Made by a program: the position numbers and the translations under genes
The notes under the pieces: model-generated
Database searches by the model: none
The model's input: the letters and a program-made list of their open reading frames with translations, nothing else
What the model was told of the DNA's origin: nothing
IMG/VR virus record: IMGVR_UViG_3300037467_000548
Location: 1 to 47,401 of that record
DNA length: 47,401 bases
From: a virus
Direction: 5' to 3' (one strand)
Shown here: in pieces, positions 815 through 47,401 of the stretch
How the letters are laid out: each line of letters begins with the position of its first letter
Numbering within the stretch: position 1 is the stretch's first letter

Positions 815-3800
815 TGCCGTTCTACGATGAAACCTCGACCATTCAGGACGTGTCGAACATTGCGCCTGACGAGCCGGCGCCGACCCCATCCATGATGGAC
901 ACGTGGGGCGCGGCGTTCCGCACGCAAAACACCATCGGCTCGGCGATCGCCAACTCCGGCATCCCCGACCCGACAGTCGTCGACCAAGGCCAAGAGGACT
1001 TCAATGCCATCGACTTCGTGAAGGACGATCCGAAATACTCACCTTTCGTTGAGAGCTTCGCCGGCATCCGAAACAAGCGTGCGGCAGAAGCGCAAAAACT
1101 TCGCATCGATCAGGAGCTTCAGGATCAGCGCACCTTATCCGCTGCCGGCGGCATGGGTGCTATTGCCCAGATGGCGGCAGGCGTTGTCGATCTGCCCACG
1201 CTCTTCCCGATCGGTGGCGAGTTCGTGACTGGTGGCCGTCTGGCGCGCGCGGCCAATATCGCCATCGGTGCCGGCTTGGATGCTGGCGTTTCGGAAGCGG
1301 CATTGCAGGCCACACAGGCCACCAGGACGCGCGAAGAGAGCGCGCTGAACATCGGTGGCTCCATCATCCTCGGCGGAGCGCTAGGCACGCTGGTAAGCCG
1401 GCTGGGGACGGCAGAGACCCGCGCACTCTCGACGAAGATCGAAGGGCAGGATGCGGCGTTCGATGCCGTGGACAAGGAATTCGCCAACCTCGGCAAGGGA
1501 ACATCGGCCGGCGCGGTCGCGACCGATACCGGTCCGCTGACACTGAAGGACGAGGCGTTCATCTCGAAGCTCCCCATCGTCAACCGGCAGGACCCGCTTA
1601 TCCGCCTGCAGTTGAACGAGCTTGATGCTGGCAGGCAGGCTGTTCGTGGCTTGGCTGAAACGCCACTCGAGTACGCCGACAACGCGGCAGGCATCGCGAC
1701 AGAGCGCGGCGGCGCGGTCGAAACCCGCATGAAGATGTGGCACGGCCCGCTGGCGTCGGCGCTGCGAGAGATCGATACGTCGTTCGCGCGCTACTATCAC
1801 TCGACGCCGGAACCATCGGCATTCCAGCGCTTCCTCTCGCCCGCCATGTCGGAGTTCGACCGGTTCCGCGGCTCGACGGATCGCCTGACCTATAAGCAGT
1901 TCAAGGAGGAAGTCGGCAAGGCGGCATTCTCGGGAGAACAGCATCCCATCGCCCAAGTGGCGGAGGCGGCACGCGTCTATCGCAAACTCGATGACGCGAT
2001 GAAGAAGGCGGCCATCGAGGCGCGGCTTTTGCCCGAAGACGTCACGGTGAAGGGCGACGTCAGCCACCTGTTCCGCATGTACAACAAGGAAAAGATCATC
2101 GCGCAGCGGGATAGGTTCTCGGCGATCCTGAACGACTATTTCATCCAGAAGCGCAACGAAGCCGCGAAGATCGCCGAGACGCCACTGACCAAGAAGGCGG
2201 AAGGCGAGGCGGCCGATCCGAAGGCTGCGGCCGCTCGGGCGAAGGCTGAAGAGTTCGGCCGCCTGTCCGACGGGGAACTCAGGGGCGTGGTCGACGATAC
2301 GATCAACAGCATCCTCGGTCATGCCGATAGCCGCGTGCCTTACGATATCGTCGCCGGTCCGCGCGGCCCTCTGAAGGAACGCCTGCTCAACATCGAGAGC
2401 GCCAAGATCCAGGACTTCCTCAACACCGATGTCGAGGAGGCTCTTCGTGCCCAGGTGCGCACGATGTCCGCCGATGTCGAGATCGCTCGCAAGTTCGGCT
2501 CGGTCGATATGGCGGAGCAGTTCCGCAAGATCAACGATGAGGCAGACGCCAAGATAGCCGGGGCAACAAGCGATAAAGCCCGCCAGCGGATCGAGGCATC
2601 GCGCAAAGCGGCGCTGCGCGACCTTGCCGGCATCCGCGATCGGCTGCGCGGTAATTATGCCTTGCCGTCGAACCCGGACTCGCTGGTGCTGCGCGCCGGC
2701 CGCATCGCTAGAAACATCAACTATCTGCGCCTTCTCGGCGGCATGACGGTTTCGGCCATCCCCGATCTGGGAAAGGTGGTATTCTCTCATGGCCTGACCA
2801 GCGCATTCCGTGACGGCTTCCTGCCTATGGTGAGGAACTTCAAGGCCTTTCGCTTGGCTGCCCAGGAAGTGAAGGACGCCGGCACCGCTCTGGATATGGT
2901 GCTCGACAGTCGAGCGATGGCGATGGCCGACATCACCGACGACTTCGGCCGGCATTCAGCTTTCGAGCGTGGGCTGTCCTCGCTGACGACGCGCTTCGGT
3001 GTCGTGTCCCTTATGGCCCCTTGGAACGCCACGCTGAAGCAGTTCACCGGTCTGGTGACGATGACCAACATCCTGCGTTCTGCGGAGCGCGTGGCGGCAG
3101 GCAAGGGGACGGCTCGCGACATCCGCAACTTGGCATCAAGCGGCATCGACGCGGACCTGGCGGAGCGCATCGCGAAGCAGTTCGGCACGCACGGCGACAA
3201 CCAGGACGGCATTCTGTTGGCCAAGGCCGGCGACTGGACGGACAACGGCGCGCGTGAGGCCTTTCGCGCTGCTGTGGTTCGCGAAGTTGACCGCGCCATC
3301 GTCTCGCCCGGCCAGGACAAGCCGCTGTGGATGTCGACGGAACTTGGCAAGGCCGTCGGGCAACTGAAGTCGTTCGGGGTGTCCAGCATGCAGAAGACAC
3401 TTCTGGCAGGGCTTCAGCAAAGGGACGCGGCAACTCTGAATGGCATTATGGTTTCGCTCGGTCTTGGTGCGGCCGCCTACGCACTGAAGGCTAGGATCGC
3501 CGGCTATGAGCCCTCCGATGATCCGTCGGTATGGGCAGTGGAGGCCCTAGACAAGAGCGGACTCACGGGCTGGCTCATGGATGCCAATGCCGTCGTTGAG
3601 AAGGCCACGCGCGGCAAGGTCGGGGCATCCTACTTCACCGGCAAGCCCATTAGCCGCTACGCCTCTCGGAACGTGGCTGGTGCATTTCTCGGTCCATCGG
3701 TCGATGCCGTCTCCGATATATTCCAGGTGAGTGGCAGCATCTTCGCGGGAGATACAACCCAAGCGGATGTCCACAAGCTGAGGAAGTTGCTCCCAGCCAA

Positions 3801-3885
3801 CAATTTGTTCTATGTTCGCTCCCTCTTTGACCGAGTGGAGAAGATGACAGGTTCAGCACTCAACCTGCCGGAGACGAAAAAGTAG
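814..3885 (+). CDS. Large internal virion / DNA-ejection protein (T7 gp16-like position), 1023 aa
   Basis: A long ORF whose ATG overlaps the upstream stop (TAATG). It follows the SLT core protein and has hydrophobic Gly/Ala-rich segments. The assignment rests on size and synteny only. Confidence 0.6.
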   Translation: MPFYDETSTIQDVSNIAPDEPAPTPSMMDTWGAAFRTQNTIGSAIANSGIPDPTVVDQGQEDFNAIDFVKDDPKYSPFVESFAGIRNKRAAEAQKLRIDQELQDQRTLSAAGGMGAIAQMAAGVVDLPTLFPIGGEFVTGGRLARAANIAIGAGLDAGVSEAALQATQATRTREESALNIGGSIILGGALGTLVSRLGTAETRALSTKIEGQDAAFDAVDKEFANLGKGTSAGAVATDTGPLTLKDEAFISKLPIVNRQDPLIRLQLNELDAGRQAVRGLAETPLEYADNAAGIATERGGAVETRMKMWHGPLASALREIDTSFARYYHSTPEPSAFQRFLSPAMSEFDRFRGSTDRLTYKQFKEEVGKAAFSGEQHPIAQVAEAARVYRKLDDAMKKAAIEARLLPEDVTVKGDVSHLFRMYNKEKIIAQRDRFSAILNDYFIQKRNEAAKIAETPLTKKAEGEAADPKAAAARAKAEEFGRLSDGELRGVVDDTINSILGHADSRVPYDIVAGPRGPLKERLLNIESAKIQDFLNTDVEEALRAQVRTMSADVEIARKFGSVDMAEQFRKINDEADAKIAGATSDKARQRIEASRKAALRDLAGIRDRLRGNYALPSNPDSLVLRAGRIARNINYLRLLGGMTVSAIPDLGKVVFSHGLTSAFRDGFLPMVRNFKAFRLAAQEVKDAGTALDMVLDSRAMAMADITDDFGRHSAFERGLSSLTTRFGVVSLMAPWNATLKQFTGLVTMTNILRSAERVAAGKGTARDIRNLASSGIDADLAERIAKQFGTHGDNQDGILLAKAGDWTDNGAREAFRAAVVREVDRAIVSPGQDKPLWMSTELGKAVGQLKSFGVSSMQKTLLAGLQQRDAATLNGIMVSLGLGAAAYALKARIAGYEPSDDPSVWAVEALDKSGLTGWLMDANAVVEKATRGKVGASYFTGKPISRYASRNVAGAFLGPSVDAVSDIFQVSGSIFAGDTTQADVHKLRKLLPANNLFYVRSLFDRVEKMTGSALNLPETKK

Positions 3886-4095
3886 ATGCTGGCCATCATT
3901 GCCGGACTCGCCGGCGCCGCATGCTGCATAGGCGTGTGGAATGCTGTCGATAGATCTGATGGGCCAAAAGTCGCAATGTGGGGCGCGGCCGCCCTCATCC
4001 TGTTCGGCCTGACTTTCTTTGGCGCGGCAGCACACAAGCCGGGTGGATGCTTCACGGACTGGGACGGCAGGTCAAATTCTGAGGTTTGCGACTAG
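3886..4095 (+). CDS. Small membrane protein, 69 aa
   Basis: ATG directly follows the upstream TAG. Two hydrophobic stretches are present (MLAIIAGLAGAACCIGVW, AAALILFGLTFFGAAA). Confidence 0.5.
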   Translation: MLAIIAGLAGAACCIGVWNAVDRSDGPKVAMWGAAALILFGLTFFGAAAHKPGGCFTDWDGRSNSEVCD

Positions 4096-4190
4096 CCTTA
4101 GTCGCTGGTTTTGCTTATAAAAAGCGGGCCGATCTGGTGCTGGTAACACCGCGTCGGCCCTAACCAAGCCAACCTATTCAGGAGGTCGAA

Positions 4191-4658
4191 ATGGCTGCCA
4201 AACTCATATGCTCGATTCCAGATTGCGACAAGCCGGCCCATTGTCGGGGCTGGTGCGACATGCACTACACTCGGTTCAAGCGGCATGGCGATCCTTTGTT
4301 CACCAAGACTGCGCCAGAAGGCGAGGGGCTAAAGCTCCTGTTCTCGCTCATCGGTCATAAAGGTGCAGGCTGCATCATTTGGCCGTTCAGCAGGACACCG
4401 CAGGGCTATGGACAGACTTTCTACTGCGGTGAGGTCATGGGCTCGCATCGCGTCATGTGCGTTCTTGAGCATGGCGAGCCGCCGACGCCGGAGCATCAGG
4501 CCGCGCATTCGTGCGGCAACGGTCGGGGCGGCTGCATCAACCCGGACCATTTGCGCTGGGCCACGCCGAAAGAGAACATCGCCGAGAAATTCGACGTTCA
4601 TGGCTGGGCGCTTCTGCGCAGCCAAGACGGGAAGATAACCGGGCACGCCCGGACCTAA
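4191..4658 (+). CDS. HNH homing-type endonuclease
   Basis: An AGGAGG RBS lies upstream. Cys-rich CSIPDCDKPAHCRGWCDMHYTRFKRHGDP is followed by HSCGNGRGGCINPDHLRWATPKEN, an HNH_3-like motif. Confidence 0.8.
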   Translation: MAAKLICSIPDCDKPAHCRGWCDMHYTRFKRHGDPLFTKTAPEGEGLKLLFSLIGHKGAGCIIWPFSRTPQGYGQTFYCGEVMGSHRVMCVLEHGEPPTPEHQAAHSCGNGRGGCINPDHLRWATPKENIAEKFDVHGWALLRSQDGKITGHART

Positions 4659-24391: not shown

Positions 24392-24967
24392 TCAGGCGGC
24401 GACGGCCTGACCTATGTTCAGCGTCTTGATGCGCTCGATGGCTTCGACGGGAAGGGTTGCCGGCAAGTTGCGATTGGCCGCGTTTAGGAAACCCTGCAGA
24501 ACAGCTTGGGCGGCAGGCCAAATTTCCAGCACGTCCTCGACGGTCTGGTAGTTTGCAATCAACGACCCATAGTCTTTGAGAATTTGCTGGCGCTCTTCGT
24601 CGGCCTGCGATTTGCGGAGGTCGTATTCCTCAATCGCCGCAACGCACTTTGCTGACCACGTATAGTTGCGGGATGAACAGTAGCCCTTGGGAACGAGCGG
24701 AGCGTCATCTTTGCGGCAATTGAACCGCAGCTGTTGCCCCGTCTCGCTGTAGCCGATCAGGCACACGTCAGGCTGCGCCATCTCATATTTGGCGAACACA
24801 GCCATGTCGGCTTCGGGGTACTTCTTGCGAACAGCCGCAATGACCAGCGGCAGCGCCTTGCCGTACGCTTTGTCGGCTTGATCGCCGTAGGTGGTAGAGC
24901 GGACGTGTTCACTTGCGAAGCTGGTGAGAGTTTCGCGAATTTCCTTGTTGAGCCGTAGCTTTGCCAT
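24392..24967 (-). CDS. First gene of the leftward early operon, hypothetical (191 aa)
   Basis: AGGAGA RBS with ATG 24967 (MAKLRLNKEIRE...). The track ORF upstream of this is hydrophobic junk that overlaps the promoter. Confidence 0.6.
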   Translation of the reverse strand: MAKLRLNKEIRETLTSFASEHVRSTTYGDQADKAYGKALPLVIAAVRKKYPEADMAVFAKYEMAQPDVCLIGYSETGQQLRFNCRKDDAPLVPKGYCSSRNYTWSAKCVAAIEEYDLRKSQADEERQQILKDYGSLIANYQTVEDVLEIWPAAQAVLQGFLNAANRNLPATLPVEAIERIKTLNIGQAVAA

Positions 24968-25031: not shown

Positions 25032-25060
25032 AATGTAGGGAATTTCCTATCGACGGTCAA
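25032..25060 (-). promoter_or_regulatory. PL-like promoter: TTGACC-N17-TACATT
   Basis: The -35 is at 25060-25055 and the -10 at 25037-32, read on the minus strand. The operator 15-mer fills the spacer. Confidence 0.6.
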
Positions 25061-25097
25061 TAGGGAAAAACCTACTACTAAGAAATTTCTTATCGAC
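25036..25097. promoter_or_regulatory. OL operator cluster: TAGGGAATTTCCTAT, CCTAT-N9-ATAGG, TAGGGAAAAACCTA, AGAAATTTCT
   Basis: The 15-mer at 25036-25050 is identical to 26590-26604. Confidence 0.65.
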
Positions 25098-25100
25098 AAG

Positions 25101-25130
25101 ACAAAAAGAAAGCCCGCACGCAGGTCGGGC
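25101..25130 (-). terminator. Intrinsic terminator ending the repressor-side operon
   Basis: On the minus strand, GCCCG-acctgcgtg-CGGGC is followed by TTTCTTTTTGT. Confidence 0.6.
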
Positions 25131-25155
25131 CGGTTAGGCAAAAAGGAAGACGCTC

Positions 25156-25560
25156 CTACTTGTCTTCCTTCTTCCCGTTAAATGCCCAAACCACCGAGGC
25201 GATGGTGCCGGCCCCAAGGATCGCGCCGACCCACTCAGCGCCTATCCATGCGCACCAAGCAGAAAAGCCGAGGGCGGCGAGCACAAAGATCAGAGCGCAT
25301 ATCTTGCCGAAAATAGAGTCAGCATAGAAAAGCTTCTGCTCTCGCCTGTCGATGAGGCGGCGGTGCTCGCTCTCCAATTCCCATGCCTTAACAATGCGCT
25401 CTGCGCCGTTGGGAACGACCTGGTTGAACCGCTCTAGTACCTCCGGCGGCGGGAGAGGCGCTTTCCAGCTATGCGTCTGAAGCGATATCTGGTGGTGATG
25501 GTTTTGTTGGGGAGGGTTATTCGGCTGCTGGGGGCGCTTTACGGGCGGCGGCTTTTTCAT
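25156..25560 (-). CDS. DUF2335-like membrane protein (134 aa)
   Basis: PLPPPEVLERFNQVVPNGAERIV...SEHRR is followed by two C-terminal transmembrane segments (ICALIFVLAALGFSAWCAWIG, VGAILGAGTIASVVWAF). Confidence 0.7.
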   Translation of the reverse strand: MKKPPPVKRPQQPNNPPQQNHHHQISLQTHSWKAPLPPPEVLERFNQVVPNGAERIVKAWELESEHRRLIDRREQKLFYADSIFGKICALIFVLAALGFSAWCAWIGAEWVGAILGAGTIASVVWAFNGKKEDK

Positions 25561-25753
25561 TGGCCGTCTCCCGCTCGATCACCCGATACATGTCCGCGCC
25601 GATCTTCTCCATGTCGCTGCGAAGCGCATCTATGGCCTCTATCTGACTGTAGCGCCGCGGATGACTCGTGCCCACGTCCAGCAACGAGGAGAGTCCGCGC
25701 ACAAAAGAGTTGCGGGCCATGTAGCGCATTTGGCGTTTCATAGCTTTCACCAT
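25517..25753 (-). CDS. Small hypothetical protein (78 aa), partner of the DUF2335 gene
   Basis: The ORF overlaps the next gene by 44 nt. Its ATG lies 6 nt downstream of a -10-like hexamer. Confidence 0.6.
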   Translation of the reverse strand: MVKAMKRQMRYMARNSFVRGLSSLLDVGTSHPRRYSQIEAIDALRSDMEKIGADMYRVIERETANEKAAARKAPPAAE

Positions 25754-25759
25754 GCCTCA

Positions 25760-25788
25760 AGGATATGTCCCCCGAACGTAAAAATCAA
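25760..25788 (-). promoter_or_regulatory. Candidate promoter TTGATT-N17-TATCCT, 6 nt before ATG 25753 (leaderless transcript predicted)
   Basis: Read on the minus strand. It has the same -35 hexamer and the same -10-to-ATG spacing as the PR candidate. Confidence 0.5.
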
Positions 25789-25811
25789 ATGAACGTTCCG
25801 TAAACCTTCTG

Positions 25812-26531
25812 TCACCCTCGCCACTGGAACCAAGCCACGACGCGCCCATAAACACGAACGTCTTCCCGCCGCAGTTCGTAGTTCGAATAACGGGGGTTGT
25901 CGGACATCACCATGATCTTGTCGGTCCTAGGGACCATCTGCAGCCGCTTGATCGTAAGCCCGTCCCCATAGTCGCAAGCGTAGATGTCTTCAGGCGAGGG
26001 GACGTTATGTGTCATGTCCACAAAAACGTAGGAGCCTGATGTCAGGGTTGGCTCCATGCTGTCACCCTCTACCGGCAGAGAGTACACTTGGGGCATATTG
26101 CGCCAGCCGGCCTTTACCGCCGGGGGGAATGACCAGAAGCCCGAAACGTGATCCGCATAGATCTGGCCGCCTTCGGATACCTCGACGCCTTCGGGGCTTC
26201 CGAGCCCGAGCCCGCCACGAATATTTAGATTTGCGACGTCGCCCGACCCGGTTACAGGAACCGTAACCGGGTCGCTATCGTCGACTGCTTCCTCCGGCGG
26301 GGCGTCAGGGTCGAAACTGTCAACCAGTCGGCCGCGTCCGCCTTCGCGCTGCTCAAGAATTTTTGTGATGGTAGCTACGTGGCGCTCAAGAAGCTCTTGC
26401 GGCGAACCTCGTGTAACGAACTGCTGAACATAGGCATGATTCTTACCGATCGCTTCCGAAAGCTCTTTATATTCAACGAGCTTTGCGTCGACCGCGCGCT
26501 TTATCCGCTTCCGCAATTCATCCATCGACAT
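25812..26531 (-). CDS. CI-like repressor (N-terminal HTH + S24 LexA-type autopeptidase)
   Basis: The HTH is LSEAIGKNHAYVQQFV and the peptidase motif is VEGDSMEPTL ... TIKRL. The start is ATG 26531, with TTG 26567 as an alternative. Confidence 0.85.
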   Translation of the reverse strand: MSMDELRKRIKRAVDAKLVEYKELSEAIGKNHAYVQQFVTRGSPQELLERHVATITKILEQREGGRGRLVDSFDPDAPPEEAVDDSDPVTVPVTGSGDVANLNIRGGLGLGSPEGVEVSEGGQIYADHVSGFWSFPPAVKAGWRNMPQVYSLPVEGDSMEPTLTSGSYVFVDMTHNVPSPEDIYACDYGDGLTIKRLQMVPRTDKIMVMSDNPRYSNYELRREDVRVYGRVVAWFQWRG

Positions 26532-26550
26532 TCGGTCTGCATCACAAATT

Positions 26551-26616
26551 CCTATCCTATCGTCCAATAGGATTTTGCCTCTTGATTGGTAGGGAATTTC
26601 CTATTATAAATAGGGA
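26551..26616. promoter_or_regulatory. OR operator cluster: CCTAT-N6-ATAGG (26556-71), TAGGGAATTTCCTAT (26590-604), CCTAT-N5-ATAGG (26600-14)
   Basis: These lie in the divergent repressor/cro intergenic region and share half-sites with OL. Confidence 0.7.
26582..26610 (+). promoter_or_regulatory. PR-like promoter TTGATT-N17-TATAAA, 6 nt before ATG 26617 (leaderless cro-like mRNA predicted)
   Basis: Hexamers and spacing were read directly. The operator 15-mer occupies the spacer. Confidence 0.6.
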
Positions 26617-26808
26617 ATGACCGACCTTGAACGCTTCCGAGATGCTGTCGAAAAATTCATAGCCGCGAAGGGCATTTCGCCTACGCGCTTCGGAAAGGAT
26701 TTCGCTGGCGACCCACTGTTCGTCTTCGAGCTTCGCAAGGGCAGGGAGCCCCGCTCGGATACCCGAGCACGTGTTCTGGCTGGCATCACCTCGGAGAAGG
26801 CCGCATGA
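26617..26808 (+). CDS. Cro-like / early regulator (63 aa)
   Basis: It is the first rightward gene, divergent from the repressor. No RBS is possible if the promoter call is right. Confidence 0.6.
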   Translation: MTDLERFRDAVEKFIAAKGISPTRFGKDFAGDPLFVFELRKGREPRSDTRARVLAGITSEKAA

Positions 26809-27395
26809 CCGACGCCGTGGCCGACGACATCCTTCGCTCGTTCTTCGAGCGCTGGCAGCGCCTTGAGGAGGAGAAGAAAACCCTCTCCGACGATCTCAAG
26901 GAATTGTTCGCCGAAGCGAAGGCCATGGGCTTTGACACCAAGGCCATGCGTGCGGTGTTCCGTGAGCAGGTCGGCGACAAGGCTGCGGCCGAAGAGTTCG
27001 ACGCGATCTGCGACCTTTACCGGAGCAGCCTCACAGGCGCGCGACCCGCGCGTACGCGTGAGGACAACGAGATCGGGAGCCGCGCTGAGACCCACAACAG
27101 CCATCATGTAGGGCGCGCACCCAGCGCACAGCGTCAAGGGGCGGTGGCTGCCCAGGCTCCCGATACAATTCCGCAACCGACATTCCCCCCGGACGCGGAT
27201 AAGGCAGGGACGGAACCTCCTCTCTCCGCTCCTGCCACCAATTCCGCGATGCAGGCGCGCACCACGCCAGAAATTATCCGCCTGCTCCGTCCTCACTGCC
27301 TCCATATCGATGATCTCGCCAAATGCGGTGGGCAGGGAACTAGGCATTGCCAGGCATGTCTCAAAGCCGCCGAACAGATCGAAGCGGCGACATGA
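26805..27395 (+). CDS. GapR/DUF2312-like DNA-binding domain fused to a 115-aa Cys-containing extension
   Basis: LRSFFERWQRLEEEKKTLSDDLKELFAEAKAMGFDTKAMR...DAICDLY matches GapR as I recall it. The C-terminus carries HCLH..C..HCQAC. Confidence 0.75.
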   Translation: MTDAVADDILRSFFERWQRLEEEKKTLSDDLKELFAEAKAMGFDTKAMRAVFREQVGDKAAAEEFDAICDLYRSSLTGARPARTREDNEIGSRAETHNSHHVGRAPSAQRQGAVAAQAPDTIPQPTFPPDADKAGTEPPLSAPATNSAMQARTTPEIIRLLRPHCLHIDDLAKCGGQGTRHCQACLKAAEQIEAAT

Positions 27396-32262: not shown

Positions 32263-32680
32263 GAAGGCTGAGCCGCGAAAGAACGCGGCGGATAAGCGAG
32301 AAGACGGGATGCCGGTTGGTACCCCGTTTCAGAAGGGCAACGGCGGCCGGCCCAAGGGTTCGCGCAATGCGCTCGGCGAAGCGTTCCTCGAAGCGATGCA
32401 TGAGGACTTCCAGGAGCACGGCAAGAGCGTCATCGCCACGGTTCGTGCAGAGAAGCCTGACCAGTACCTCAAGGTCATCGCCTCGATCCTGCCGAAGGAT
32501 CTGAATGTCAACGTCAACAACCTCAACGATCTGAGCGATGACGAGCTCCGAAGCCGCATCCGCGATCTCGAAACCGTCATCCGACCTTTCCTCACTGGCG
32601 AAGCAATGGCTGGAACGGAAGTGGGCGGCGGAGGAGTATCACGCGCTTCTGTTGGAACTGGATCGCAGGCGGCGCACTAG
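32255..32680 (+). CDS. terS: Terminase small subunit
   Basis: It lies upstream of terL. GTPFQKGNGGRPKGSRNALGEAF is typical of small terminases. The 3' end overlaps the terL ORF by 143 nt. Confidence 0.6.
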   Translation: MPEKAEPRKNAADKREDGMPVGTPFQKGNGGRPKGSRNALGEAFLEAMHEDFQEHGKSVIATVRAEKPDQYLKVIASILPKDLNVNVNNLNDLSDDELRSRIRDLETVIRPFLTGEAMAGTEVGGGGVSRASVGTGSQAAH

Positions 32681-33320
32681 CCGTCTTCAGCAGTATCAGC
32701 CGTATTCCAAGCAAAGGGAATTCCATGCGGCCGGCGCCATTCATCGCGAACGACTGTTCATGGCGGGCAACCAGTTGGGCAAGACGATCGCAGGTGGAGC
32801 GGAGTGGGCTATCCACCTTACGGGCCGCTATCCCGACTGGTGGACGGGCAGGGTGTTCGAAAGACCAGTGCGCATGTGGGCGGCAGGAGTGACTAGCGAG
32901 AGCACGCGCGATAACCCGCAGCGTGTCCTAGTAGGTCCGCCGCAGCAACAGTCAGCATGGGGCACCGGTTTCATCCCTGGTGATGCCATTGTCGATACGA
33001 TCATGAGCCGTGGCGTTCCGAGCTCGCTCGATAGCGTTGTGGTTCGGCATGGTGGCGGCGGGGATATTCAGGCCGGCGAGTCGGTGCTGGCCTTCAAGTC
33101 ATATGAGAAGGGCCGGGAGAAGTGGCAGGGCGAAACCTTGCACGGCGTCTGGTTCGACGAGGAACCGCCGCTGGATATCTATTCCGAGGGCCTCACCCGC
33201 ACCAATGCGACGAACGGGATAACGATCGTGACGTTCACGCCGCTGCTCGGCATGAGCGATGTGGTGCTGCAGTTCCTGACCTCAGAGCAGGTTGAGATGA
33301 TGGTGAAGGGCAAGCCATGA
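32538..33320 (+). CDS. terL: Terminase large subunit, ATPase half
   Basis: YQPYSKQREFHAAG..MAGNQLGKT (Walker A-like)..HLTGRYPDWW..VWFDEEP (Walker B-like). The true start is uncertain. Confidence 0.8.
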   Translation: MTSSEAASAISKPSSDLSSLAKQWLERKWAAEEYHALLLELDRRRRTSRLQQYQPYSKQREFHAAGAIHRERLFMAGNQLGKTIAGGAEWAIHLTGRYPDWWTGRVFERPVRMWAAGVTSESTRDNPQRVLVGPPQQQSAWGTGFIPGDAIVDTIMSRGVPSSLDSVVVRHGGGGDIQAGESVLAFKSYEKGREKWQGETLHGVWFDEEPPLDIYSEGLTRTNATNGITIVTFTPLLGMSDVVLQFLTSEQVEMMVKGKP

Positions 33321-34072
33321 CCAGGCATGTGACCTTCATGACGATCGATGACGCTGAGCACTATACGCCTGAGCAGCGAGAGGCGATCATTGCCGCGTAT
33401 CCGGCGCATGAGCGGGAAGCTAGAGCGAAAGGCATTCCGGTTCTAGGCTCTGGCCGCATCTTCCCGGTTCCAGAGGAAGACATCAAGGTCGAGCCGTTTC
33501 CGCTGCCGAAATACTGGCCGCGCATCGGTGGGCTAGACTTTGGTTGGGATCACCCTTCAGCCGCGGCTGAATTGGCATGGGATACGGAAGCCGACGTCGT
33601 TTACGTGACCAAAGCGCACCGGGCCTCACAACAGACTCCGGCGATGCAGGCCATCACGCTAAAGCCGTGGGGATCATGGCTTCCCTGGGCCTGGCCGCAT
33701 GACGGTCACAACCAGACGCTTGCCGGCGCCGGTGTGGCCCTCGCCAAGCAGTATAGCGAGCAAGGCCTGAACATGCTGAGCACACACGCGACGTTCAGCG
33801 ATGGCTCGAATAGCGTTGAGGCTGGCCTGATGGAAATGCTGGACCGGATGCAGACCGGCCGCTTCAAGGTCTTCTCGAACCTCGACCCGTGGTTTGAGGA
33901 GTTTCGGCTTTACCATCGCAAGGACGGTCTCGTTGTGAAACTGCGCGACGACCTGATGTCCGCCACCCGCTACGGCGTGATGATGCTACGGCATGCTGTT
34001 GTGGATCCGGCCGTGTTCAAGGCTCACCGGCAGCAGAGCCGGCAGTCCGATCCTCTTGGGGCATTCCGATGA
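33317..34072 (+). CDS. terL: Terminase large subunit, nuclease half (separate ORF in the -1 frame)
   Basis: AYPAHEREARAKGIPVLGSGRIFP and RIGGLDFGWDHPSAAAELAWD are RNase H-like nuclease motifs. The ATG overlaps the upstream TGA (ATGA). Confidence 0.8.
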   Translation: MTRHVTFMTIDDAEHYTPEQREAIIAAYPAHEREARAKGIPVLGSGRIFPVPEEDIKVEPFPLPKYWPRIGGLDFGWDHPSAAAELAWDTEADVVYVTKAHRASQQTPAMQAITLKPWGSWLPWAWPHDGHNQTLAGAGVALAKQYSEQGLNMLSTHATFSDGSNSVEAGLMEMLDRMQTGRFKVFSNLDPWFEEFRLYHRKDGLVVKLRDDLMSATRYGVMMLRHAVVDPAVFKAHRQQSRQSDPLGAFR

Positions 34073-45406: not shown

Positions 45407-47401
45407 ATGGCGACAATTCCTCTGCAGGTTGCCACCAAGTCGCTGGATACTGGTTCGACCGTTTCCTATCCTCAAGGCGGCGAGATCGGTCGTGCCATGC
45501 AGCAGGCCGGCGGTGAACTGACGCAGCTCGCCGACTATGCGCAGCAGCGCCAGTCTCAAATGGACCGCTTCAAGCGGATCGCGGTCGAGAACGAGTTTGA
45601 CCAGGCCGTCGCCAACCAGTCGGAGGAATTCGCCCGCAATGCGCCTGCCGACGGTTCCGGCATCCATGACGGCATCGTTGGCCAGATAGACCCGACGACC
45701 GGCGCTGTGACCAAGCCGGGCCTGTTCGATAACCTCGCCACCCAGTTCCGGGATCGCGTGCCGGCAAGCCAGCGCGGCTATTTCGACGCCACGCTTTCAG
45801 CGAAGCGGCTTTCGGTCTCGGGCTCGGCCGCATCGACGCAGTACGCACAGGAGCAGAAATACGCGACGCTCCAAACGTCGAAGATACAGGACGGTCTGCT
45901 AAACTCTATCCTGCAGTCCGATCCAGGAGATACTGCTTCCTTCGACGCGTACAAGGAGAAGGGGCGAACCGTTATCGAGGCGAGCCCGCTTGCGCCTTTG
46001 GCGAAACAGGCCGCGCTCGAAGCATGGGATCAGCAGGCACCAAAGGCGCTCGCTCAAGCGATCACCGCGCGTGATCCGGGCAAACTGCGCGCGATGCTCG
46101 GCATGGCGCCGAAAGAGGCCACTGGCGGCAATGCCGTTGATGAAGTGACCAACCGGATCATCGGGGTAGAGAGCGGTGGAAACCCCAACGCGAAAAACCC
46201 CAACTCCTCCGCGTCTGGCGTCGGGCAATTTCTGGACTCGACGTGGGTAGCGACCGTCCGCCAGCATCGTCCGGACATCGCCGCTGGCAAGAGTGCTGCA
46301 GAGATCATTGCGCTGAAGGGCGACCGCGCTCTCGGGCGCGAGATGACCCGAGCATACCAGCAGGACAATGCGGACTATCTGACCAACCGCGGCCTGCCGA
46401 CGACGCCCGGCAACATCTACCTTGCTCACTTCCTCGGACCGGCTGGCGCCACCGAAGTGCTGAAGGCCGATCCGAGCACGCCCGTTGTCAACGTCGTGGG
46501 TCAGGAAGTCGTCAACGCGAACCCCTTCCTGAAAGGCATGTCTGCAGCCGATACGGCGGCATGGGCGGCCAAGAAGATGGGGGGTGCGGCTTCTGCCTCG
46601 AAGCCCGATCCTCGCTTCGCCAACCTTGCGCCGGAAGATCGCTTGTCGCTTGCCAATGCGGATGACGTGGCCTTTCGCCAGCAGCAGGCGGCTGACCGCG
46701 CCCAAGCCAACGCTGACTATTCCGCCTACAAAGACTCTATGGAACTCGGCATCGTTCAGGGCAAGGTCTCCGACGAGGGCCTGATCTCCAACGACACGGT
46801 GCTGAAGGACGGCGACAAGGCGACGCTGATCCGCTCACTGCGTGCGCAGAACGAGACGATCAACCAGACGCAGGCCGATCTGTCGGCGCTCGCCAGCGGC
46901 GGCTTCACGGTCGACCCCTATGCCACCAAGGACCGAACGCGAGTTGACAACGTCTACGCCGAGTCTCTGAAGCACGTCCCCCAAGACAAACAGGGCGCGG
47001 TGACGACAGAGATCATCCGGCAGACCGGTGTGGTTCCCCAGCCAGTCGTCAACAACATGCGGCAAGGGCTTGCCAGCCAAGATCCGGCACAGGTCGCCGC
47101 CGCCGCACAGACCGCACAGCGGATATCGCAGTTGAACCCGGCTGCTCTCGGGCGCCGCGACGGTGGCAGTGAGGTGCAGAAGTCTGCCGATGACTTCACG
47201 CACATGGTCAACGACCTGAACATGTCGCCGACGGACGCCGCGAAGCGCCTGATCGATCTGCGCGACCCGAAGGCGCAGCAGACCCGCAAGGCGTTGGAGC
47301 CGGCCGCGAAAGAATTCATCAAGTCGCTGGCCGACGTCGATATCGCGTCGGAGTTCAAGACGGGGTTTCTCGGCGGTACGCCGTCGCTCGGCATCACGCC
47401 A
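45407..47401 (+). CDS. Internal virion protein with a lytic transglycosylase (SLT) domain; continues at base 1 across the circular junction
   Basis: The motif NRIIGVESGGNPNAKNPNSSASGVGQFLDSTW lies at about 46151-46247. No stop occurs before the window end. The gene is absent from the ORF track because it is open-ended. Confidence 0.8.
   Translation, partial: MATIPLQVATKSLDTGSTVSYPQGGEIGRAMQQAGGELTQLADYAQQRQSQMDRFKRIAVENEFDQAVANQSEEFARNAPADGSGIHDGIVGQIDPTTGAVTKPGLFDNLATQFRDRVPASQRGYFDATLSAKRLSVSGSAASTQYAQEQKYATLQTSKIQDGLLNSILQSDPGDTASFDAYKEKGRTVIEASPLAPLAKQAALEAWDQQAPKALAQAITARDPGKLRAMLGMAPKEATGGNAVDEVTNRIIGVESGGNPNAKNPNSSASGVGQFLDSTWVATVRQHRPDIAAGKSAAEIIALKGDRALGREMTRAYQQDNADYLTNRGLPTTPGNIYLAHFLGPAGATEVLKADPSTPVVNVVGQEVVNANPFLKGMSAADTAAWAAKKMGGAASASKPDPRFANLAPEDRLSLANADDVAFRQQQAADRAQANADYSAYKDSMELGIVQGKVSDEGLISNDTVLKDGDKATLIRSLRAQNETINQTQADLSALASGGFTVDPYATKDRTRVDNVYAESLKHVPQDKQGAVTTEIIRQTGVVPQPVVNNMRQGLASQDPAQVAAAAQTAQRISQLNPAALGRRDGGSEVQKSADDFTHMVNDLNMSPTDAAKRLIDLRDPKAQQTRKALEPAAKEFIKSLADVDIASEFKTGFLGGTPSLGITP
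47275..47401. repeat. Second copy of the 127-bp terminal overlap
   Basis: Identical to bases 1-127. Confidence 0.95.

Follow-up and report, generated by a model that had tools for sequence, protein, structure and literature searches.

A small basic protein and a DUF2335 membrane protein form a conserved, mobile two-gene cassette next to the repressor gene of a temperate phage

The DNA analysed here, positions 1 to 47,401 of the IMG/VR virus record IMGVR_UViG_3300037467_000548 (47,401 nucleotides (nt), referred to below as the window), carries two overlapping genes between its phage repressor gene and a terminator-like hairpin that precedes the left operator and promoter (OL/PL). The first encodes a small basic protein of 78 amino acids (aa), and the second a 134-aa membrane protein of the family DUF2335. 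An initial annotation, made from the sequence alone, had described two overlapping minus-strand genes of these sizes in this position, and had proposed that they are the counterpart of lambda rexA and rexB, a sensor and a membrane effector made in the lysogen. We found the gene arrangement as described, with an overlap of 44 nt. The following features define the locus.

25517-25753, minus strand: open reading frame (ORF) of the small basic protein, 78 aa, the partner gene of the cassette
25156-25560, minus strand: DUF2335 membrane protein gene, 134 aa (PF10097 and phrog_3996)
25754-25811, minus strand: putative promoter/operator region of the cassette, the 58-nt gap from the repressor stop to the start of the small gene
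25788-25783 and 25765-25760, minus strand: putative cassette promoter, -35 element TTGATT, 17-nt spacer and -10 element TATCCT, followed by 6 nt to the ATG at 25753
25774-25798: inverted repeat GAACGT-N13-ACGTTC, overlapping the -35 element
25111-25131, with a U-run at 25100-25110, minus strand: intrinsic-terminator-like hairpin (from RNA folding), after the DUF2335 stop and before OL/PL

The main new result is that the two genes form an almost obligate unit. In 146 of 157 loci, and in 108 of 115 after dereplication of the loci at 80% identity, the gene directly upstream of DUF2335 encoded a homologue of the small family. Among phage, IMG/VR and metagenome loci the partner was found directly upstream and on the same strand, usually overlapping, for 67 of 72 DUF2335 ORFs. 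When contigs from one genome per species were used (80 loci), it was present for 79 of 85 DUF2335 ORFs, and most of the misses were truncations at contig ends. The association was equally tight when approached from the small protein, using a hidden Markov model (HMM) that was seeded from close homologues and iterated by score only. Among 5,290 ORFs, 67 of its 68 matches lay directly upstream of DUF2335 and the other, in locus L054, approximately 850 nt upstream. Among approximately 12,400 ORFs all but two matches were directly upstream of a DUF2335 gene, and these two exceptions were second matches further upstream in two paired loci. In a reverse test, six small-protein homologues were retrieved independently of DUF2335, and each of the six then had an overlapping DUF2335 gene. 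Conservation of the pair as neighbours had been set beforehand as a check on the initial annotation, and these counts (146/157 and 6/6) bear it out.

The two proteins also diverge together: their pairwise identities correlate across loci (r = 0.67), a value reached in none of 500 permutations. In annotated phages a gene of ∼70-110 aa likewise precedes and overlaps the DUF2335 gene, as in Xylella phage Xfas53 (gp43/gp42), Pseudomonas phage MD8 (gp32/gp31), Lactococcus phage D6890 (026/027), Staphylococcus phage IME1365_01, Lacticaseibacillus phage P2.4 and E. coli phage ZX5. All-against-all clustering of neighbouring genes yielded no conserved third gene, returning antisense artefact ORFs and, in five loci, S24 repressors. 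No fusion (Rosetta-stone) protein joining both families was present among the matches obtained. Together these results show that the two genes are real and form a conserved, co-evolving and mobile two-gene cassette. Two loci, L004 (5583-5807) and L008 (838-1062), have a possible third gene, which encodes 74 aa and has a 4-nt overlap with the DUF2335 stop; it is lineage-specific, as the window lacks it and the family at large does not conserve it.

The small protein gave zero matches to Pfam, NCBIfam and PADLOC, and a weak match to phrog_26284. It is basic, with an isoelectric point of about 10, and the member encoded in the window lacks a hydrophobic segment. Its AlphaFold2 model is a two-helix hairpin (helices 2-29 and 34-72) with a mean predicted local distance difference test score (pLDDT) of 77.6. 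Alignments of the family reveal the signature F..G...(loop)...D(W/M)..(V/I)G.D...A, which includes F17, G20 and the segment D(W/M)xx(V/I)GxD; G20, D47, G52 and D54 are among its invariant positions. Helix 1 scores as membrane-associated, owing to its hydrophobicity, in some lineages, chiefly Firmicutes- and Bacteroidota-like sequences. A narrow profile of the family recovered at least 114 clusters at 50% identity from 1.84 billion proteins, and the clusters listed in an annotated collection of 5.8 billion proteins were unnamed or termed 'hypothetical protein', without a Pfam domain. No DNA-binding fold was recognisable in what is a plain helical hairpin without a match in Pfam or the PDB. The partner is not mentioned in the literature that we searched.

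The 134-aa protein is a bona fide DUF2335 member, as the initial annotation had recognized: residues 37-76 matched PF10097 with E = 2.2e-12 (47.1 bits, cutoff 25), and phrog_3996 was matched with E = 8e-23. The AlphaFold2 model (pLDDT 75.6) has a disordered N terminus followed by helices 39-48, 52-106 and 109-133, the last two accounting for the two C-terminal transmembrane (TM) helices that had been claimed. The resulting layout is a disordered basic N-terminal tail, a short helix and a long helix that begins in the cytoplasm and continues as TM1; 2-4 loop residues then lead into TM2. A hydrophobic segment covers residues 77-109 and the hydrophobic hairpin approximately residues 85-127. By the positive-inside rule, both termini should be cytoplasmic. 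The protein of the window has a cytoplasmic motif followed by TM helices, and the motif was conserved in 108 dereplicated homologues.

Conservation in DUF2335 peaks in this cytoplasmic motif, GPLPPP..L..YN..(V/I)PNGAERI..E..HR, which carries 2.8 bits per column; of its 39 columns, 14 reach at least 80% identity. Invariant residues of the protein include P37, P39, E54, R55, H66 and R67. For the TM helices the values are 1.8-1.9 bits per column and one such column each. This pattern, as judged from the alignments, would fit a membrane-tethered binding module better than a RexB-like channel, and it argues against a simple RexB-like or holin-like pore. The sensor-plus-effector mechanism of the initial annotation is unproven and partly disfavoured; conservation lies in the cytoplasmic motif and not in the TM helices.

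Searches of Pfam, PHROGs, NCBIfam and PADLOC with both proteins gave no functional lead. The best PADLOC match, to LeoBC (E = 0.063), covered TM residues only and was not significant, and PspM/Rv2743c, DUF2207_C and LeoBC were all rejected as relatives, being weak matches confined to TM segments and far below cutoffs. Neither protein had a match in the PDB, by sequence profiles or by Foldseek with both models, and Foldseek against BFVD returned family members only, namely Xfas53 gp42 and a Leptospira phage protein. The literature searched that mentions DUF2335 names neither a partner gene nor phage exclusion; the domain is listed in a Fusobacterium island. Papers on type VI secretion effectors refer to a 'DUF2335 (phospholipase)', which is irrelevant here because the cassette proteins are 130-aa membrane proteins without lipase features. 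We take that label to be most likely a slip for DUF2235, the Tle1 lipases.

The cassette of the window sits in a temperate phage genome. The first 127 nt of the window are identical to the last 127 (1-127 and 47275-47401, an exact terminal direct repeat), so that the window represents a circular and complete genome of about 47,274 bp. The structural genes are podovirus-like, and an immunity region of the lambda type spans 25032-26616. A 15-bp palindromic operator-like motif, TAGGRAANTTCCTAT, is matched 8 times in the window (1.55 expected), always within one of two clusters, 25035-25093 and 26567-26604, which flank the block formed by the repressor gene and the cassette. The elements of this region are as follows.

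25812-26567, minus strand: S24 (LexA/CI-type) repressor gene (PF00717 Peptidase_S24, E = 7.6e-19; phrog_4 and phrog_6201)
25035-25050, 25061-25075 and 25078-25093: three operator-like sites of OL, within 25032-25093 and overlapping the PL-like promoter
25060-25032, minus strand: PL-like promoter TTGACC-17-TACATT, from a promoter scan
26567-26581 and 26589-26604: operator-like sites of the right operator (OR), in the region 26567-26616 and overlapping the right promoter (PR)
26582-26587 and 26605-26610: PR, read from the sequence as TTGATT, N17, TATAAA, then N6 to the ATG at 26617
26617-26808, plus strand: cro-like gene, 63 aa, divergent from the repressor gene and driven by PR

Translation of the repressor likely starts at the ATG at 26531. 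Directly after the cro-like gene, in the early-right operon, lies a gene for a GapR-like DNA-binding protein (26805-27395, plus strand; PF10073, E = 1.4e-21). The first gene of the PL operon (24392-24967, minus strand, 191 aa) shows weak similarity to Nmad5/baeRF-type domains and to phrog_1965. Elsewhere in the genome the large terminase subunit is encoded in two plus-strand ORFs that overlap by 4 nt (32538-33320 and 33317-34072); ORF 1 carries Terminase_6N, and ORF 2 carries the end of 6N together with Terminase_6C. The split could reflect an assembly frameshift, a pseudogene or programmed frameshifting. An IS-type transposase gene is also present within the phage genome (15230-16528, minus strand; phrog_506, E = 2.8e-90). 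No classical integrase was recognized among the large window ORFs tested.

We then considered how the cassette may be expressed. The 58-nt gap, the promoter-like element TTGATT-N17-TATCCT and the inverted repeat all read as the initial annotation had claimed. The candidate promoter matches 8 of 12 consensus positions, and a consensus scanner gave no call; support for it comes from conservation. When the window was aligned with L004 and L008, the closest chromosomal and metagenomic relatives, and with L007, homology started exactly at ACGGAACGTTCATTTGATTTTTACGTTCGGGGGACATATCCT, which is nearly invariant. This block is better conserved than the coding sequence, and the DNA upstream of it is unrelated in L004 and L008. 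The element thus appears to be conserved with the cassette, as would befit a promoter of its own. It also has the same geometry as PR of the window phage, TTGATT-N17-(TATCCT or TATAAA)-N6-ATG. At both promoters the -10 element is only 6 nt from the ATG, and therefore both may give leaderless messenger RNAs, the cassette transcript being predicted as leaderless or nearly so.

Of the inverted repeat, L004 and L008 retain the right arm only in part, and L010 has lost it. The repeat was ruled out as a terminator, since no U-run follows it. The LexA box of alphaproteobacteria is GTTC-N7-GTTC; this assignment was also ruled out, because the repeat has a spacing of 13 instead of 7 and L004 and L008 lack the second GTTC. 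No terminator was found in the 58-nt gap between the repressor gene and the cassette, and both cassette genes lie on the repressor strand, as had been noted. Downstream, the terminator-like hairpin of the window, which would close the transcription unit formed by repressor gene and cassette, has a 9-nt loop or an imperfect stem, and the scanner gave no call. It lies outside the conserved cassette, because the homology shared with L004, L007 and L008 does not continue past the DUF2335 stop. The pair is flanked on both sides by intrinsic terminators in Lactococcus phage D6890 and Staphylococcus phage IME1365_01.

The pair spans temperate phages of Proteobacteria and Firmicutes and the genomes of at least seven phyla, the genome loci covering Alpha-, Beta- and Gammaproteobacteria, Bacteroidota, Acidobacteriota, Planctomycetota, Verrucomicrobiota and Chloroflexota. 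Its genomic settings vary. Upstream neighbours at 105 dereplicated loci comprised five S24 repressors, four Rha proteins, four integrases, two amidases, two tail fibre proteins and many housekeeping genes. The suggested check for co-occurrence of the pair next to S24 repressors accordingly held for the pairing with DUF2335 and failed for the repressor, which accounts for only 5 of the 105. The cassette adjoins cI in the window, L010 and L172. It is found between the lysin gene and attP in Gram-positive phages, between the integrase and tail fibre genes in phage MD8, and at the prophage edge in P. aeruginosa. In Xfas53 it adjoins the ejection-protein genes, and in E. coli Uetakevirus-type prophages it lies between putative ejection-protein genes and the tailspike gene. 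In both cases it is antisense to the late genes and holds the position of sieA/immI in P22. In the E. coli prophages (L155, 4725-5748) a toxin of the YafO toxin-antitoxin (TA) family and a BRO-N antirepressor-like gene share the accessory region of the cassette.

In E. coli the cassette is chromosomal in 72 of 5,426 complete genomes. The same query found it in 15 of 50,697 phage records and 2 of 72,556 plasmid records, which makes it ∼24 times commoner in phage per base, and the two plasmid matches were both megaplasmids of about 0.5 Mb. In cellular genomes (126 cases, scanned with Pfam and PADLOC) the immediate neighbours on either side were mostly housekeeping genes.

The junction between repressor gene and OL is itself informative. 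The cassette is absent from nine phages whose repressors are related (34-63% identity); in several of these the operator motif matches as well. In L160, OL begins 18 nt past the repressor stop and the junction is empty (3687-3765), and in L163 and L164 a different 102-aa gene fills the slot (3681-4573). Since one relative is empty and two hold other cargo, the junction is a variable cargo site of which the cassette is one occupant. In L007 (4860-5600) the cassette is accompanied by only the last ∼80 bp of a repressor gene; a T5orf172 gene is adjacent and there is no intact repressor. This arrangement looks like the recombination footprint of a cassette moving between contexts. The cassette is thus present in some related phages and absent from others at the same junction, and it recurs in unrelated phage genomes and contexts, as expected from horizontal mobility. 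It is best explained as a self-contained, horizontally mobile moron in a variable slot between the S24 repressor gene and the left terminator (tL), OL and PL.

The comparison with lambda RexAB, on which the initial annotation was built, stands in position and strand. As in the order cI-rexA-rexB-tL-OL/PL, the cassette shares the strand of the repressor gene and fills the interval from that gene to tL/OL/PL, and it consists of two genes, one for a cytoplasmic and one for an inner-membrane protein. The cI-rexA-rexB operon has an additional internal promoter, PLIT, and such a promoter is plausible for the window cassette. The likeness extends neither to homology (hhalign probability <1%) nor to architecture. 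RexA showed no similarity to the small-family profile (0.08%), nor RexB to the DUF2335 profile (0.4%). RexA has 279 aa and RexB, with 144 aa, has four TM helices; the cassette proteins are a helical hairpin of 78 aa and a protein with two TM helices and a conserved cytoplasmic motif. The small protein, which has no Pfam match, is not a RexA-like sensor of about 280 aa with DUF4747-like similarity, and the DUF2335 protein, with its two TM helices, is not a RexB-like four-pass membrane protein. Unlike RexAB, the cassette genes overlap by 44 nt and also occur in many other slots and in chromosomes.

Other exclusion systems resemble the cassette in part. Sbash gp30/gp31 and Butters gp30/gp31, both of mycobacteriophages, are prophage two-component systems of a cytoplasmic and a membrane protein (PMC6426596, PMC7542560). 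Together with Gordonia phage CarolAnn gp43/gp44 they are prophage-expressed defence pairs that resemble RexAB (PMC6426596, PMC7542560, PMC6426606), and they share with the cassette the combination of a cytoplasmic and a membrane protein and a location in a variable region near the immunity cassette. For Butters it has been proposed that the membrane partner holds the cytoplasmic partner at the membrane (PMC6426596, PMC7542560, PMC6426606). These systems differ in having four-pass membrane partners and large cytoplasmic partners with weak DUF4747/RexA-like similarity. Homology to them was not found via PADLOC, Pfam or PHROG, and no direct sequence comparison was made. P22 SieA, which acts in superinfection exclusion at the inner membrane (PMC10883804), shares its genomic position with the cassette of Xfas53 and the E. 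coli Uetakevirus-type prophages. Like DUF2335 it is a small inner-membrane protein whose best-conserved motif is cytoplasmic. In contrast, SieA is a single protein with 3-4 TM helices that needs no partner gene (PMC10883804), and SieA, of which types A-C with the motif FxRYPxEAxxFNK are described, gave an hhalign probability of 0.5% with the DUF2335 profile, which does not indicate homology.

The case for a real, widespread and uncharacterized system is strong, and that for its function is circumstantial only. In the model that we favour, two sources would supply transcripts of the cassette in the lysogen, read-through of the repressor promoter and the conserved promoter that the cassette itself carries, and the 44-nt overlap suggests that translation of the two genes is coupled. 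[quoted passage not shown] The weakly conserved 2-TM hairpin would anchor DUF2335 with both termini in the cytoplasm, and the conserved cytoplasmic motif would bind the small hairpin protein, a host target or a target from an incoming phage. The lysogen could then be protected from other phages, either by superinfection exclusion at DNA entry or by an abortive response triggered at the membrane, through a mechanism not homologous to that of RexAB or SieA.

A lysogen-expressed inner-membrane complex that excludes other phages is our best single guess for the cassette, with a probability that we would put somewhat short of even, and its function is inferred from position only. A generic anti-phage role is preferred because the pair recurs in conversion and exclusion slots of unrelated temperate phages, has a broad host range and is rare on plasmids. 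In a wider form of this proposal, DUF2335 and its small partner would constitute a new broad family of two-component inner-membrane systems, prophage- and chromosome-borne and extending from Firmicutes phages to Acidobacteriota. They would block or abort infection via a membrane-tethered cytoplasmic motif, by a mechanism unrelated to RexAB, SieA or catalogued defence; this we regard as slightly less probable still. The following observations count against an exclusion function. There is no clear defence-island signal, as only ∼3-5 of the 126 immediate neighbours are defence-related. Neither protein is matched by any of the 5,027 models of PADLOC-DB v2.0.0. The only phenotype in the literature that we searched, reduced maceration of potato slices after deletion of a DUF2335 gene in Dickeya zeae MS2 (PMC8809351), points to host physiology and not to phage defence.

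That phenotype would be accounted for if the cassette were a lysogenic-conversion or host-physiology module, acting in envelope or membrane homeostasis, stress response or virulence, with the DUF2335 motif recruiting or sequestering a host protein and the small protein serving as cofactor. We consider this unlikely, on a par with the addiction module discussed below. The lowered maceration fits it (PMC8809351), as do the many copies located amid housekeeping genes on chromosomes of Acidobacteriota, Bacteroidota, Planctomycetota and further phyla, and a conserved cytoplasmic peptide motif suggests a conserved cellular partner. However, the Dickeya result is a single screen datum for which the passage reporting it shows no complementation (PMC8809351), the chromosomal copies have no conserved synteny, and the tie to temperate-phage accessory slots is strong and recurs in very different hosts. 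A role in the life cycle of the phage itself, in the lysis-lysogeny decision or induction (for example through a membrane protease such as FtsH) or as a holin/antiholin-like timer, seems to us very unlikely. Class II holins have two TM helices and both termini in the cytoplasm, a description that the small DUF2335 protein resembles, and the cassette is located in the immunity region in the window, L010 and L172 and directly after the lysis cassette in Gram-positive phages. Yet in those Gram-positive phages a terminator lies between the lysin gene and the cassette, and in P22-like, Uetakevirus and MD8 contexts its orientation is opposite to that of the late genes. Phages with related repressors manage without it, many chromosomal copies have no adjacent phage genes, and the TM segments are poorly conserved.

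A TA-like addiction or stress module deserves similar scrutiny. Here the small protein would be a labile antitoxin, possibly an autorepressor acting at the inverted repeat, and DUF2335 a membrane toxin, with any anti-phage effect secondary; we judge this improbable. The cassette has the look of such a module, in that both genes are small, they overlap and co-diverge, and the smaller gene comes first, and the inverted repeat lies over the conserved promoter. The patchy distribution across phyla, with insertions beside unrelated housekeeping genes and no conserved synteny, agrees with it, and a YafO toxin gene is adjacent in the E. coli prophage accessory region. SpoIISA/SpoIISB of Bacillus is a protein-protein TA pair with a membrane toxin; compared by description only, it is likewise a compact two-gene unit of a small soluble protein and a membrane protein with a cytoplasmic domain, and it differs in gene order and sizes. 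A type II TA system would be expected to contain a recognizable TA domain, and neither protein has one in Pfam or NCBIfam. Unlike such modules, the cassette is nearly absent from plasmids, with only the two megaplasmid matches. In addition, the small protein lacks a recognizable DNA-binding fold, the repeat has a right arm that is incomplete in L004 and L008 and missing from L010, and DUF2335 is least conserved in its TM helices, contrary to what one would expect of a pore-forming toxin.

DUF2335 is a widespread domain of unknown function that is rarely mentioned in the literature searched. Its pairing with a specific, unannotated partner turns two orphan ORFs into a defined and testable two-component system, which moves with its own putative promoter into classical lysogenic-conversion slots of very different temperate phages and has tractable orthologues in P. 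aeruginosa and in E. coli, the latter represented by the pair WP_001609225 and WP_001154803. If the exclusion or defence proposal is true, the cassette would represent a new and very compact (about 0.65 kb) family of prophage immunity systems with a broad host range. If it is not a defence system, it would be a conserved membrane module that temperate phages have repeatedly acquired, and its target should reveal the host process that they manipulate.

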